From: a phage
Sequence record: PZ452578.1
Direction: 5' to 3' (one strand)
Length of the DNA: 64,000 bases
Shown here: positions 23,861 through 30,513 of the stretch, piece by piece
Numbering within the stretch: position 1 is the first letter of the stretch
Layout: every line of letters starts with the position of its first letter
Notes under the pieces: model-generated
What the model was told of the DNA's origin: nothing
Databases searched by the model: none
What the model saw: only the letters and a program-made list of their open reading frames with translations
Translations under genes and position numbers: made by a program

Positions 23861-24976
23861 ATGGAAAAATTTATGGCAAAGTTTGGACAAGGATATGTCC
23901 AAACGCCATTTTTATCGGAAAGTAATTCAGTAAGATATAAAATAAGCATAGCGGGTTCTTGCCCGCTTTCTACAGCAGGACCATATGTCAAATTTCAGGA
24001 TAATCCTATTGGAAGTCAAACATTTAGCACAGGACTTCATTTAAGAGTTTTTGACCCTTCTACAGGAGCATTAGTTGATAGTAAGTCATATGCTTTTTCG
24101 ACTTCAAATGATACTACATCAGCTGCTTTTGTTAGTTTCATGAATTCTTTTTCAAACAACAGACTTGTTGCTATATTAACAAGTGGAAAGGTTAATTTTC
24201 CTCCTGAGGTAGTATCTTGGCTAAGATCCGCGGGAACGTCTGCTTTTCCATCTGATTCTATATTGTCAAGATTTGACGTATCATATGCTGCCTTTTATAC
24301 TTCTTCTAAAAGAGCTATTGCATTAGAACATGTTAAACTAAGTAATAGAAAAAGCACAGATGATTATCAAACTATTTTAGATGTTGTATTTGATAGTTTA
24401 GAAGACGTTGGAGCTACCGGGTTTCCAAGAAGAACGTATGAAAGCGTTGAGCAATTTATGTCAGCGGTTGGTGGAACTAATAACGAAATTGCACGTTTAC
24501 CAACTTCATCCGCGATAAGTAAATTATCTGATTATAATTTAATTCCTGGCGATGTTCTTTATCTTAAAGCGCAGCTATATGCTGATGCCGATTTACTTGC
24601 GCTTGGAACTACAAATATATCTATCCGTTTTTATGATGAATCGAATGGATATATTTCTTCAACACATGCTGAGTTTACTGGACAAGCTGAGTCATGGGAA
24701 TTAAAGGAAGACTATGTAGTTGTTCCTGAAAATGCAGTAGGATTTACGATATATGCACAAAGAACTGCACAAGCAGGTCAAGGTGGCATGAGGAATTTAA
24801 GTTTTTCTGAAGTATCAAGAAATGGCGGAATTTCAAAACCTGCAGAATTTGGCGTCAATGGTATTCGAGTTAATTATGTCTGTGAATCTGCTTCACCTCC
24901 AGATATAATGGTACTTCCTACACAAGCATCGTCTAAAACTGGTAAAGTGTTTGGACAAGAATTTAGAGAAGTTTAA
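23861..24976 (+). CDS. 35: long tail fibre hinge protein gp35 (371 aa)
   Basis: Length and position after gene 34; terminator 24981-25007 follows. Confidence 0.85.
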   Translation: MEKFMAKFGQGYVQTPFLSESNSVRYKISIAGSCPLSTAGPYVKFQDNPIGSQTFSTGLHLRVFDPSTGALVDSKSYAFSTSNDTTSAAFVSFMNSFSNNRLVAILTSGKVNFPPEVVSWLRSAGTSAFPSDSILSRFDVSYAAFYTSSKRAIALEHVKLSNRKSTDDYQTILDVVFDSLEDVGATGFPRRTYESVEQFMSAVGGTNNEIARLPTSSAISKLSDYNLIPGDVLYLKAQLYADADLLALGTTNISIRFYDESNGYISSTHAEFTGQAESWELKEDYVVVPENAVGFTIYAQRTAQAGQGGMRNLSFSEVSRNGGISKPAEFGVNGIRVNYVCESASPPDIMVLPTQASSKTGKVFGQEFREV

Positions 24977-25007: not shown

Positions 25008-25015
25008 TATAAATA
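25008..25015 (+). promoter_or_regulatory. late promoter TATAAATA for genes 36-37-38-t
   Basis: Exact TATAAATA about 24 nt upstream of gene 36 ATG. Confidence 0.7.
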
Positions 25016-25703: not shown

Positions 25704-28700
25704 ATGGCTACTTTAAAACAAATACAATTTAAAAGAAGCAAAACTGCAGGAGCACGTCCTGCCGCTTCAGTATTAGCCGAAGGTGAATTGGCTATAAACT
25801 TAAAAGACCGTGTACTTTTTACTAAAGATGACCAAGGAAATATTATTGATTTAGGTTTTGCTAAAGGCGGTAGCATTGACGGGAATGTTATTCATAAAGG
25901 CAATTATAACCAAACTGGTGATTATACTTTAAATGGCACATTCACTCAGACAGGTAATTTTAATTTAACTGGTATTGCTCGAGTAACTCGTGATATTATT
26001 GCCGCCGGGCAGATTATGACTGAAGGCGGAGAACTTATTACAAAAAGTTCAGGTACAGCGCATGTTCGTTTTTTCGATGGCAATAGTCGCGAACGTGGAA
26101 TCATTTATGCCCCGGCTAATGACGGTTTAACTACACAAGTACTTAATATCAGGGTTCAAGACTATGCCGCTGGTAGCGAAAGCACTTATGCATTTTCAGG
26201 CAGTGGCCTATTTACTTCACCTGAAGTATCAGCATGGAAATCTATTTCGTCTCCACAAATTCTGACCGACAAAGTCATTACAGACGGGAAGAAGGCAGGC
26301 GATTATGACATCTATTCATTAGCAAATAACACCCCATTATCTGAAAGCACTACTGCTATTAATCATCTTCGTGTCATGCGTAATGCAGTCGGTTCTGGTA
26401 TTTTCCATGAAGTTAAAGATAATGATGGGATAACCTGGTATGCCGGTGACGGGTTGGAGGCTTATCTTTGGTCGTTTACGTGGTCCGGTGGGTTGAAAGC
26501 GGGTCATTCTATTTCTATAGGTACCCCAGGCGGTCCAAAAGGATATTCTGAATTAGGAACGGCCTCAATTGTTCTTGGGGATAATGATACCGGATTTAAA
26601 TGGCATCAGGACGGATATTATTTCAGCGTTAATAATGGAACAAAAACGTTTTTATTTAGTCCCAGCGAAACAACTAGCCTAAGAAAATTTGTAGCTGGAT
26701 ATTCTACTAATGGAACCGATTTAACTACTCCTCCAACTGAAAATTATGCTCTTGCTACTGTCGTGACATATCACGATAATAACGCGTTTGGAGATGGCCA
26801 GACTCTTTTAGGATATTATCAAGGCGGTAATTATCATCATTATTTCCGCGGTAAGGGTACCACAAACATTAATACTCATGGCGGTTTGTTAGTTACTCCA
26901 GGTAATATTGATGTTATTGGCGGTTCTGTTAATATTGATGGTATAAATAATGCTTCTACCCTGCTATTTAGAGGCAACACAACTGGTAGTAGTTCAGTTG
27001 ATAATATGACAATTTCCGTTTGGGGCAATACGTTTACTAATCCTAGTGTAGGTAATCGTAAAAACGTCATGGAAATTTCTGATGCAACTAGTTGGATGAG
27101 CTATATTCAAAGACTTACAACAGGTGAAGTAGAAATGAACGTTAATGGTTCATTTGAATCATCTGGTGTTACTGCTGGAAATAGAGGAGTTCACACAACA
27201 GGCGAAATTTCATCTGGTGCAGTGAATGCGCTTCGCATTTGGAATGCAGATTATGGAGCCATTTTTAGACGTTCAGAAGGTAGTCTTCATATTATTCCAA
27301 CTGCTTACGGTGAAGGTAAACACGGCGATATCGGTCCACTTCGCCCATTTAGTATGGCTTTAGATACTGGTAAAGTTACTATTCCAGATTTACAATCAAG
27401 TTACAATACGTTCGCTGCTAACGGTTATATTAAATTTGTTGGTCATGGAGCGGGTGCCGGCGGTTATGACATTCAATATGTTCAAGCGGCTCCTATTTTC
27501 CAGGAAATCGATGATGATGCTGTAAGCAAATATTATCCTATTGTTAAACAGAAGTTTCTAAACGGTAAATCCGTTTGGTCTTTAGGTACTGAAATTAATT
27601 CAGGTACATTCGTTATTCATCATCTGAAAGAAGATGGTTCACAAGGCCATACGTCTCGTTTTAATCAAGACGGTACTGTTAACTTCCCAGATAACGTTCA
27701 GGTCGGCGGCGGTGAAGCTACTATTGCTCGTAATGGTAATATTTTCTCAGATATTTGGAAACCGTTTACTTCTGCCGGTGATACTACAAATATTCGCGAT
27801 GCTATTGCGACTCGTGTTTCGAAAGAAGGCGACACGATGACCGGTAAGTTGATTATTAGAAGAGATTCTGACGCTATTAACTTAGCTGCGCCTTCGACAA
27901 CTGATGCAAGTTACCTTCTTTCTACAGGAGCTGGTGAAAATCTATGGTATATTGGTAAAGGCGGCGCTGATAATACTGTATCATTCTACAACTATAAAAC
28001 CAGTGGGGCTGTGCAAATTAACTCTATTGGTGAAATCGCGCTGATTCCACAAGGTGCTGCAACATTTAACTTCAACCGCGATCGTCTCTATATAAATGGG
28101 TCTCAATGGACTGCACATCAAGCTGGTGACTGGGTTAACCAATGGCGTCAAGAAGCTCCTATATTTGTGGATTTTGGTAGTGTCGGCAATGACTGCTATT
28201 ATCCTATTATTAAAGGAAAATCTGTTATTACGAATGAAGGATACGTATCTGGTGTTGATTTCGGTATGCGCCGTATCACTAACCAATGGGCTCAGGCTAT
28301 TATTCGTGTTGGTAACCAGGAAAATGCTAGCGATCCGCAAGCTATCTTCGAATTCCACCATAATGGAAACATGTACGTTCCTGACATGGTTAAAGCTGGA
28401 GTAAGATTATCAGCTGGTGGAGGTGACCCTGCATGGACAGGCGCATGTGTTGTTATTGGTGATAATGACACTGGGTTAGTTCATGGCGGTGACGGTCGTA
28501 TTAACATGGTTGCAAATGGAGTGCATATTGCTTCATGGTCGGCCGCTTACCATCTCCATGAAGGTCTTTGGGATACCACTGGTGCTTTGTGGACTGAACA
28601 AGGAAGAGCTATTATTTCTTTTGGTCATTTAGTCCAACAAAGCGATGCCTATTCCACATTTGTCCGCGATGTTTATGTCCGTTCTGATATTCGTGTTAAA

Positions 28701-29018
28701 AAAGACCTTGTTAAATTTGAAAATGCTTCTGAGAAGCTTTCTAAAATTAACGGTTACACTTATATGCAGAAGCGAGGCCTAGATGAAGAAGGCAATCAGA
28801 AATGGGAACCTAACGCCGGTTTGATAGCTCAAGAAGTTCAAGCTATTTTGCCTGAATTAGTTGAAGGTGACCCTGATGGCGAAGCTTTACTTCGTTTGAA
28901 CTATAACGGTGTAATTGGTTTAAATACAGCTGCAATCAATGAGCATACTGCAGAAATTGCGGAACTTAAATCAGAAATTGAAGAACTTAAAGCATTAGTT
29001 AAATCATTGTTAAAATAA
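25704..29018 (+). CDS. 37: long tail fibre distal subunit gp37 (1104 aa) with C-terminal intramolecular-chaperone-like domain
   Basis: N-terminus [13 protein letters not shown] as T4 gp37; C-terminal SDIRVKK...coiled-coil segment. Confidence 0.9.
28644..29018 (+). other. C-terminal intramolecular-chaperone-like (autoproteolytic) domain of gp37
   Basis: SDIRVKKDL motif around 28683 followed by conserved region and terminal coiled coil. Confidence 0.5.
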
Positions 29019-29023
29019 TAAGA

Positions 29024-29037
29024 GGGGCTTCGGCCCC
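29024..29037 (+). other. stable stem-loop (GGGGC-UUCG-GCCCC) between genes 37 and 38
   Basis: Perfect 5-bp GC stem with UUCG loop, no U-run, just 5' of gene 38 SD. Confidence 0.5.
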
Positions 29038-29049
29038 TTGGAGGTTTAT

Positions 29050-29826
29050 ATGGCAGTAACAGGACCGTGGGTAGGATCGTCTGCAGTAGTTAATACAGGA
29101 CAAAATTGGATGGGTGGCGCGGCCCAACGATTAAGAATGGGTGCTCCATTTTGGATGAGTAATATGATAGGTCGATCTGTTGAAATAATTCACACGCTTG
29201 GAGCAGACCATAACTTCAATGGTCAATGGTTCCGAGATAGATGTTTTGAGGCAGGTAGTGCACCTATAGTGTTTAATATCACTGGAGATTTAGTATCATA
29301 TTCTAAAGATGTTCCTTTATTCTTCATGTATGGAGATACACCGAATGAATATGTTCAGTTGAATATACACGGCGTAACGATGTATGGACGTGGCGGTAAT
29401 GGCGGTAGCAATAGTCCTGGTTCAGCTGGGGGTCATTGTATTCAAAATGATATTGGTGGGAGACTAAGAATTAATAATGGCGGAGCTATTGCTGGAGGTG
29501 GCGGTGGCGGCGGCGGCGGATATTATTCTCCTTTTTCACGAATGAGATTGACTTTTGGCGGGGGCGGCGGGCGTCCGTTTGGCGCACCGGGCGGATCTAT
29601 TGATATGCAATCAGGAGCAACTGCTGGTACTATTTCTGCGCCTGGCGCAGGGTCTGTGAACGGTATCTATAGCGGCGGTGGCGGTGGCGAAGTTGGCTCC
29701 GCAGGAGGTAGATGTAATATTCGTGGTCAAGGATCTGAATACGACGGCGGAGCTGCTGGTTATGCCGTCATAGGGTCTACACCGACATGGCAAAACGTTG
29801 GAGCAATATATGGTCCAAGAGTATAA
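29050..29826 (+). CDS. 38: gp38 receptor-binding adhesin, T2/T6 type with glycine-rich motifs (258 aa)
   Basis: ATG 29050 with GGAGG SD (track start 29038 is TTG); poly-Gly blocks separating variable segments. Confidence 0.8.
29390..29790 (+). repeat. glycine-rich motifs of gp38 separated by short variable segments
   Basis: Runs [34 protein letters not shown]. Confidence 0.6.
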
Positions 29827-29856
29827 TTTGAATAAATATCCTTAAAAGGAGGGTCT

Positions 29857-30513
29857 ATGGCAGCACCTAGAATATCATTTTCGCCCTCTGATATTCTGTT
29901 GGGTGTTCTAGATCGCTTGTTCAAAGATAACGCTACCGGGAAGGTTCTTGCTTCCCGAGTAGCTGTCGTAATTCTTTTATTTATGATGGCGATTGTTTGG
30001 TATAGGGGAGATAGTTTCTTTGAGTACTATAAGCAATCAAAGTATGAAACATACAGTGAAATTATTGAAAAGGAAAGAAATGCACGCTTTGAATCTGTCG
30101 CCCTGGAACAACTCCAGATAGTTCATATATCATCTGAGGCAGACTTTAGTGCGGTGTATTCTTTCCGCCCTAAAAACTTAAACTATTTTGTTGATATTAT
30201 AGCATACGAAGGAAAATTACCTTCAACAATAAGTGAAAAATCACTTGGAGGATATCCTGTTGATAAAACTATGGATGAATATACAGTTCATTTAAATGGA
30301 CGTCATTATTATTCCAACTCAAAATTTGCTTTTTTACCAACTAAAAAGCCTACTCCCGAAATAAACTACATGTACAGTTGTCCATATTTTAATTTGGATA
30401 ATATCTATGCTGGAACGATAACCATGTACTGGTATAGAAATGATCATATAAGTAATGACCGCCTTGAATCAATATGTGCTCAGGCGGCCAGAATATTAGG
30501 AAGGGCTAAATAA
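29857..30513 (+). CDS. t: holin T (218 aa)
   Basis: N-terminus MAAPRISFSPSDILLGVLDRLF and single TM segment as T4 holin; AAGGAGGG SD. Confidence 0.9.
   Translation: MAAPRISFSPSDILLGVLDRLFKDNATGKVLASRVAVVILLFMMAIVWYRGDSFFEYYKQSKYETYSEIIEKERNARFESVALEQLQIVHISSEADFSAVYSFRPKNLNYFVDIIAYEGKLPSTISEKSLGGYPVDKTMDEYTVHLNGRHYYSNSKFAFLPTKKPTPEINYMYSCPYFNLDNIYAGTITMYWYRNDHISNDRLESICAQAARILGRAK

Follow-up and report, generated by a model that had tools for sequence, protein, structure and literature searches.

A gene 38 product of the glycine-rich tail-fibre adhesin family, with one substitution in a specificity loop, in a T6-like Tequatrovirus

Two unrelated proteins go by the name gp38 in T-even phages, and the gene that follows gene 37 in the window (the whole stretch of phage DNA analysed here, 64,000 nucleotides; PZ452578.1) raises the question of which one it encodes. 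T4 gp38 is an assembly chaperone for gp37 that, as its RefSeq note and the literature have it, does not form part of the virion, whereas most T-even phages carry an adhesin-type gp38. The initial annotation had proposed an adhesin of the T2/T6 type and had given the length of T4 gp38 correctly (183 residues; NC_000866). Our analysis indicates that the product is very probably a receptor-binding adhesin capping the long tail fibre of a T6-like Tequatrovirus. Since gp38 determines which bacteria a T-even phage attaches to, its assignment as an adhesin rather than a chaperone, T6-like and with Tsx as its predicted receptor, has value for annotation, for predicting routes to resistance (loss of tsx) and for choosing or engineering therapeutic phages.

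The locus is made up of the following features.

25704..29018, + strand: gene 37, distal long-tail-fibre subunit of 1104 residues, the predicted seat of gp38 (Pfam; alignment to 6F45_A)
29040..29044, + strand: Shine-Dalgarno sequence GGAGG, 5 nt ahead of ATG 29050 (read from the sequence)
29050..29826, + strand: gene 38, probable receptor-recognizing adhesin of 258 residues (ORF, Pfam, identity to homologues)
29857..30513, + strand: holin gene t, which fixes synteny on the downstream side (Pfam Phage_holin_T, 2.6e-117)

The reading frame of gene 38 runs on the + strand from the ATG at 29050 to a TAA stop at 29824-29826, bearing out the 258-residue product that had been claimed for the gene after 37. 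A program-made ORF list opens the frame at TTG 29038 instead. We rejected this start because the TTG is part of an intergenic hairpin and precedes the Shine-Dalgarno sequence, and because the homologues all begin with MAV, at ATG 29050. Two antisense ORFs (29611-29793 and 29760-29924) are without support and are taken as by-products of GGN-rich coding. Gene 38 immediately follows gene 37 and is itself followed by holin gene t, an order (37-38-t) common to T4, T2, PP01, FL23, NiC89, PST and the window. With genes 35 and 36 upstream and 37 and t on either side, the arrangement is that of the standard long-tail-fibre cluster of T-even phages.

The T4 late-promoter consensus TATAAATA occurs at 25008-25015, 24 nt ahead of the gene 36 ATG (25039), and is absent between genes 37 and 38, so gene 38 is probably co-transcribed with genes 36 and 37; the count of this motif in the window, 7 observed versus 9.7 expected, is not above chance. 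Positions 29022-29039, located after the stop of gene 37 and before the Shine-Dalgarno sequence of gene 38, form a hairpin with a UUCG tetraloop (GAGGGGC-UUCG-GCCCCUU). Its minimum free energy is -14.1 kcal/mol in a 51-nt context, with a z of only -1.6 against shuffles. The hairpin has no T run on its 3' side and may be an RNA-stability or translational-coupling element. Elsewhere in the cluster, the hinge protein gp35 (23861-24976) matches the Pfam family ILEI (interleukin-like EMT inducer) over residues 58-127 (E = 5.5e-8; 33.6 bits, above the 27-bit cut-off). Over the 24 kb from 17000 to 41000 of the window, the best phage-genome matches (Shigella phages ESh32 and ESh34, and NiC89) are only ~96% identical, so this Tequatrovirus is absent as such from the August 2025 INPHARED set.

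Both Pfam adhesin profiles match gp38 over their full length and beyond their curated cut-offs. Gp38_N (PF21721) covers residues 1-40 (2e-21; 76.2 bits, cut-off 25; profile positions 1-40 of 40) and GP38 (PF05268) covers residues 45-258 (9.6e-71; 238.5 bits, cut-off 25; profile positions 1-218 of 218), the latter E-value putting the observation far beyond chance. Sequence matches in the PDB are to the receptor-binding domain of PP01 gp38 (9V85, 1.6e-80; PMC12892980) and to S16 gp38 in the gp37-gp38 tip complex (6F45_D, 3.3e-52, residues 1-255). By sequence and predicted fold the protein is a member of the adhesin family, and we found nothing against this assignment; its location at the fibre tip of the virion and its binding of a receptor are predicted by analogy.

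The alternative is a T4-type non-structural chaperone for gp37 trimerisation, absent from the virion, in which the glycine runs are low-complexity linkers. What the gene shares with T4 gene 38 is its name and its map position between 37 and t. The sequences are unrelated (BLASTP of T4 gp38 against gp38 of the window gives E = 1.9 with a best match of 12 residues), T4 gp38 is without the glycine motifs, and it matches no Pfam family, whereas the protein of the window matches both adhesin families. In addition, gp37 in the window has its own Peptidase_S74 chaperone domain, as does T2 gp37, whereas T4 gp37 lacks it. The direct BLASTP and Pfam comparisons exclude the T4 type at the sequence level, and we hold this reading to be vanishingly improbable. 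Strong similarity to T4-type gp38, which the initial annotation had named as evidence against itself, thus did not appear, and the adhesin-type architecture that it proposed agrees with the two Pfam models, with 6F45_D and 9V85, and with the predicted fold.

The adhesin can be divided into four parts.

29050..29169, + strand: N-terminal attachment domain, residues 1-40, three short predicted helices with W7, W20 and W35 (Pfam Gp38_N; alignment to S16)
29170..29385, + strand: linker and N-terminal part of the predicted beta-helix, residues 41-112 (AlphaFold2 strands; aligned to the beta-helix of 9V85 and 6F45_D)
29386..29769, + strand: glycine-rich region, residues 113-240, with putative polyglycine-II sandwich motifs, interleaved beta-helix strands and hypervariable loops (composition; invariant G, R and P columns; fold match)
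29770..29823, + strand: conserved C-terminal strands returning to the predicted beta-helix, residues 241-258 (AlphaFold2 strands)

Structure modelling, which had been proposed as a check, gave an AlphaFold2 model, built on 117 sequences, that is confident (mean pLDDT 91.9, pTM 0.83) and superposes on S16 and PP01 gp38. When the model was searched against the PDB with Foldseek, these two gp38 structures were the only ones returned, 9V85 with E = 5e-27 and TM 0.87 on the target and 6F45_D with E = 2e-23 and TM 0.81/0.85; the next match has E > 2. The modelled protein has the beta-helix and polyglycine-II sandwich fold, the polyglycine-II geometry itself being predicted from that in S16 and PP01. 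Compared with the S16 gp37-gp38 complex (6F45), the three-domain architecture of three-tryptophan attachment domain, beta-helix and polyglycine-II sandwich is the same, here on the basis of the model, and gp37 has the same type of C-terminal chaperone and tip. The two gp38 proteins differ in that they are ~45% identical and have other variable loops, S16 binding Salmonella OmpC.

The attachment domain aligns to residues 1-41 of S16 gp38, with W7, W20 and W35 corresponding to S16 W7, W20 and W36. In the model its helices span residues 8-16, 21-27 and 36-39, and each tryptophan lies just ahead of one helix. The three tryptophans are present in 115, 114 and 103, respectively, of 120 aligned sequences. 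[quoted passage not shown] The part that follows (residues 41-112) has modelled strands with pLDDT 87-97 and the lowest mean entropy in gp38, 0.74 bits. At the C-terminal end, residues 241-258 contain modelled strands at 240-242, 246-249 and 252-254 and are 94% identical to T6 and M1.

The partner of this attachment domain, gp37, matches Pfam Gp34_trimer and Peptidase_S74 and, weakly, gp37_trimer (16.5 bits, below the 21.7-bit cut-off). The crystallized construct of S16 gp37 (6F45_A) aligns with the C-terminal 193 residues of gp37 (1.5e-43), and these contain one further feature.

28683..29015, + strand: predicted C-terminal intramolecular chaperone of gp37, residues 994-1104 (Peptidase_S74 at residues 994-1053, E = 1.1e-12; position of the motif)

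The conserved serine of the cleavage motif is Ser994 (VR|SDIRVKKD, window 28683). Gp37 ends in a self-cleaving type of chaperone domain, which is observed, and, as in T2, T6 and S16, it is predicted to be auto-cleaved before Ser994, which would expose the tip for gp38 to cap; mature gp37 probably ends at Arg993.

Sequence relationships differ between the attachment domain and the rest of gp38. The attachment domain (MAVTGPWVG...) belongs to the S16/PP01/SH7 type. It matches, at 100% identity, the one in adhesins with a receptor domain only 51% identical; conversely, it is only 57.5% identical to that of T6 and RB5 despite a near-identical receptor domain. RB5 has the MAVVGVPGWIG type, and the T6 N-terminus carries a two-residue VP insertion that gp38 of the window is without. 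Across T2, PST, PP01, FL23, NiC89, S16 and the window, the type of the gp37 tip co-varies with that of the gp38 N-domain, which fits an attachment role for the latter; one gp37 C-terminal type is common to the window, NiC89, FL23, PP01 and S16, and T2 and PST have others. Module swapping is published behaviour of gene 38, and the combination of an S16/PP01-type attachment domain with a matching self-chaperoned gp37 tip is a known modular mosaic.

Glycine accounts for 63 of the 258 residues (24%), including runs of nine (149-157), five (170-174) and five (209-213) and nine GG pairs. The protein had been described as dominated by poly-glycine blocks; this holds for the C-terminal half, with 35% glycine in residues 117-240, and fails for residues 1-116, an ordinary helical and beta-helix region with 14%. 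The DNA for the glycine-rich region has a GC content of 54%, compared with 35% for the whole window.

To the question of whether the glycine runs are linkers or structure, an alignment of 120 sequences (gp38 of the window, 116 database homologues, and T2, PP01 and S16) gives an answer. Glycine motifs at G113-G118, G127-G128, G136-G145, the poly-G run, G170-G178, G181 and G199 are invariant or nearly so, the invariant columns including G113-G118, G127-G128, G171-G174, P176, G178, G181 and G199. They alternate through the C-terminal half with five hypervariable segments.

29404..29427, + strand: variable segment 1 (loop A), residues 119-126, GSNSPGSA (1.68 bits; aligns with PP01 loop A, W119-I124)
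29521..29556, + strand: variable segment 2 (loop B), residues 158-169, containing R164 (2.22 bits; aligns with PP01 loop B, Q161-V170)
29593..29643, + strand: variable segment 3 (loop C region), residues 182-198 (1.53 bits; PP01 loop C, N184-W189, corresponds to residues 182-188)
29653..29676, + strand: variable segment 4 (loop D), residues 202-209, SVNGIYSG (1.99 bits; aligns with PP01 loop D)
29707..29745, + strand: variable segment 5 (loop E), residues 220-232 (2.02 bits; aligns with PP01 loop E)

Mean column entropy is 1.86 bits in these segments and 0.57 bits in the rest of residues 113-240, a contrast that is partly circular because the segment borders were drawn from the same entropy profile. 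When the comparison was repeated with the crystallographic loops A-E of PP01, transferred by alignment, entropy was 2.09 bits in the loops and 0.80 bits outside them (p = 3e-12). Loop B combines the highest entropy with the lowest model confidence (pLDDT 79 for the block 161-170). With low entropy in the glycine motifs and high entropy in the intervening segments, the runs of glycine make up the conserved structural core, and the variable segments are distal loops. In S16 and PP01, the glycine runs form polyglycine-II helices packed as a three-layer sandwich. That the glycine motifs are the most conserved columns also counts against linkers of the kind that a T4-type chaperone reading would entail.

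Loops D and E of PP01 have been cross-linked to OmpC loops 5 and 7, loop D to OmpC loop 5, and loop E is the main specificity loop of PP01. The variable segments between the glycine motifs, which the initial annotation had singled out as likely determinants of receptor specificity, coincide with these receptor-recognition loops A-E of PP01, in support of that proposal.

Which receptor the adhesin would recognize was approached through its relatives. Over all 258 residues the closest phage proteins are those of NiC89, 4E10 and G10400 (98.8% amino acid identity) and RB27 (98.1%). Across residues 48-258, Q164R alone separates the protein from gp38 of RB5 and NiC89. Gene order is shared with RB5/RB3, RB27 and NiC89, and NiC89 has a gp37 of the same length, 1104 residues. 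Identities by region to four reference adhesins are listed below.

T6 (Tsx), 85% overall: residues 1-40, 57.5%; residues 41-116, 86.8%; residues 117-240, 93.5%
M1: residues 1-40, 57.5%; residues 41-116, 98.7%; residues 117-240, 68.5%
PP01 (OmpC): residues 1-40, 77.5%; residues 41-116, 97.4%; residues 117-240, 50.0%
T2 (FadL/OmpF): residues 1-40, 47.5%; residues 41-116, 46.1%; residues 117-240, 43.5%

An alignment with T2 and T6 gp38, likewise proposed beforehand, gave a T6-like result. The label 'T2/T6 type' is correct as the name of a class, and its T6 part stands; the protein is not T2-like, and this assignment was rejected on an identity of ~45% and a BLASTP alignment limited to residues 1-143. 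T2 gp38 (262 residues) has the same Pfam architecture, glycine motifs and gene context with a self-chaperoned gp37, but is 43-47% identical in every domain. T6 gp38 (261 residues), the prototype Tsx-binding adhesin, has the same set of variable segments and differs by eight substitutions in residues 117-240, including P163S and Q164R in loop B.

In the same region, identity reaches 99.2% with NiC89 and RB5 and 95.2% with FL23; over the whole protein FL23 and FL44 gp38 are 93.8% identical. When RB3, RB5, RB6, RB7, RB14 and RB27 were tested on Keio deletion strains, the T6-like adhesins all required Tsx, and the variable segments of Tsx users amount to essentially a single set (Trojet et al. 2011, PMC3157838). 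FL23 and FL44 are also Tsx-dependent and fail on a tsx deletion strain, and gp38 phylogeny predicts the receptor (Lutz et al. 2025, PMC12032242). Near-identity to adhesins with tested receptors (RB5, T6 and FL23) leads us to predict from sequence that the receptor is the nucleoside channel Tsx of E. coli.

The gp38 family collectively also uses OmpA, OmpC, OmpF and FadL, and the adhesin could in principle serve one of these, as in K3, Ox2 and M1, in PP01 and S16, or in T2. Residues 1-116 do resemble those of PP01, which binds OmpC of E. coli O157 (77-97% identity), and PP01 gp38 is the best structural match, with loops A-E that map onto the variable segments. However, specificity maps to the variable segments (PMC12032242, PMC3157838), and in residues 117-240 identity is only 50% to PP01, 68.5% to M1 and 43.5% to T2, compared with 93.5-99% to Tsx users. 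All five loops differ from those of PP01, so a different receptor is expected, and we regard a different porin as very improbable.

With Tsx as the predicted receptor, a mechanism can be proposed from the S16 and PP01 structures and T-even genetics, from which the stoichiometry, the cleavage of gp37 and the polyglycine-II geometry are carried over. Gp37 would trimerise with the help of its own C-terminal chaperone, which would then cleave itself off before Ser994. The three-helix N-terminal domain of a single gp38 would dock on the tip of the trimer, its tryptophans W7, W20 and W35 inserted into three equivalent hydrophobic pockets. Packed as polyglycine-II helices, the glycine motifs would build a rigid sandwich of three layers on the small beta-helix, and this would present five distal loops (residues 119-126, 158-169, 182-188, 202-209 and 220-232) that would bind extracellular loops of the outer-membrane protein, predicted to be Tsx.

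The family, its structure, the modular shuffling and the rule that the receptor follows the variable segments have all been published, so the feature as such is already known. The only new element is a previously unrecorded gp38 allele with one substitution in a specificity loop. The codon is CGA at 29539-29541, encoding R164 at the centre of variable loop B, in place of CAA in NiC89; RB5/RB3, RB27 and NiC89 all have Q. The exact gp38 sequence is absent from a collection of 15 billion proteins, and its C-terminal 103 residues have no 100% match in any INPHARED phage record. Scans of IMG/VR with exact 20-mers matched neither the R nor the Q allele and are uninformative on frequency.

R164 corresponds to Q167 of T6, and the change is the same as Q167R in PST, a phage that infects Yersinia pseudotuberculosis and also uses OmpA. 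Q167R, M168I and G208I are the only differences of PST from T6 within the specificity domain; the PST HVS2 pair alone (Q167R and M168I) markedly improves the plating of T6 recombinants on Y. pseudotuberculosis, and specificity is known to be altered or widened by one to three changes in gp38 loops, as in PST versus T6 and SV76 versus T2 (PMC3157838). It is therefore conceivable that R164 shifts or widens specificity relative to T6 and RB5, towards OmpA, a surface protein of Yersinia or variants of Tsx not recognized by Q164 adhesins. It is, after all, the sole difference from RB5 and NiC89 in residues 48-258, it lies in the middle of loop B, and the same Q-to-R change is among the three T6/PST substitutions, in the pair that improves plating on Yersinia. 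We nevertheless think such a shift unlikely. Of the PST changes the window has Q-to-R only, that is, just one of the two in HVS2, with M165 and G205 (the position of PST G208I) unchanged; when T6 was given all three PST changes, the chimera continued to rely mainly on Tsx with E. coli as host (PMC3157838); and neutral drift, or selection on a particular Tsx allele, could account for the substitution. That Q164R is an adaptive host-range mutation, retuning or widening recognition to divergent Tsx alleles, OmpA or a Yersinia outer-membrane protein, is accordingly doubtful. If it were, the allele would be a natural intermediate, one step along the path from T6 to PST.

Three gp38 genes of other phages showed features of their own. 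Yersinia phage ZN18 gp38 (L006, 79-912) has a 17-residue tandem duplication spanning the poly-G motif and variable loop B, and PYps32T gp38 (L007, 118-909) has a GGV insertion within the poly-G run. Yersinia was the isolation host of both phages, and each of the two changes affects the loop that contains R164. In the RefSeq record of PST gp38 (L009, 7639-8442), the start is annotated seven codons (MPPLEKI) upstream of the conserved MAV and is probably mis-called.
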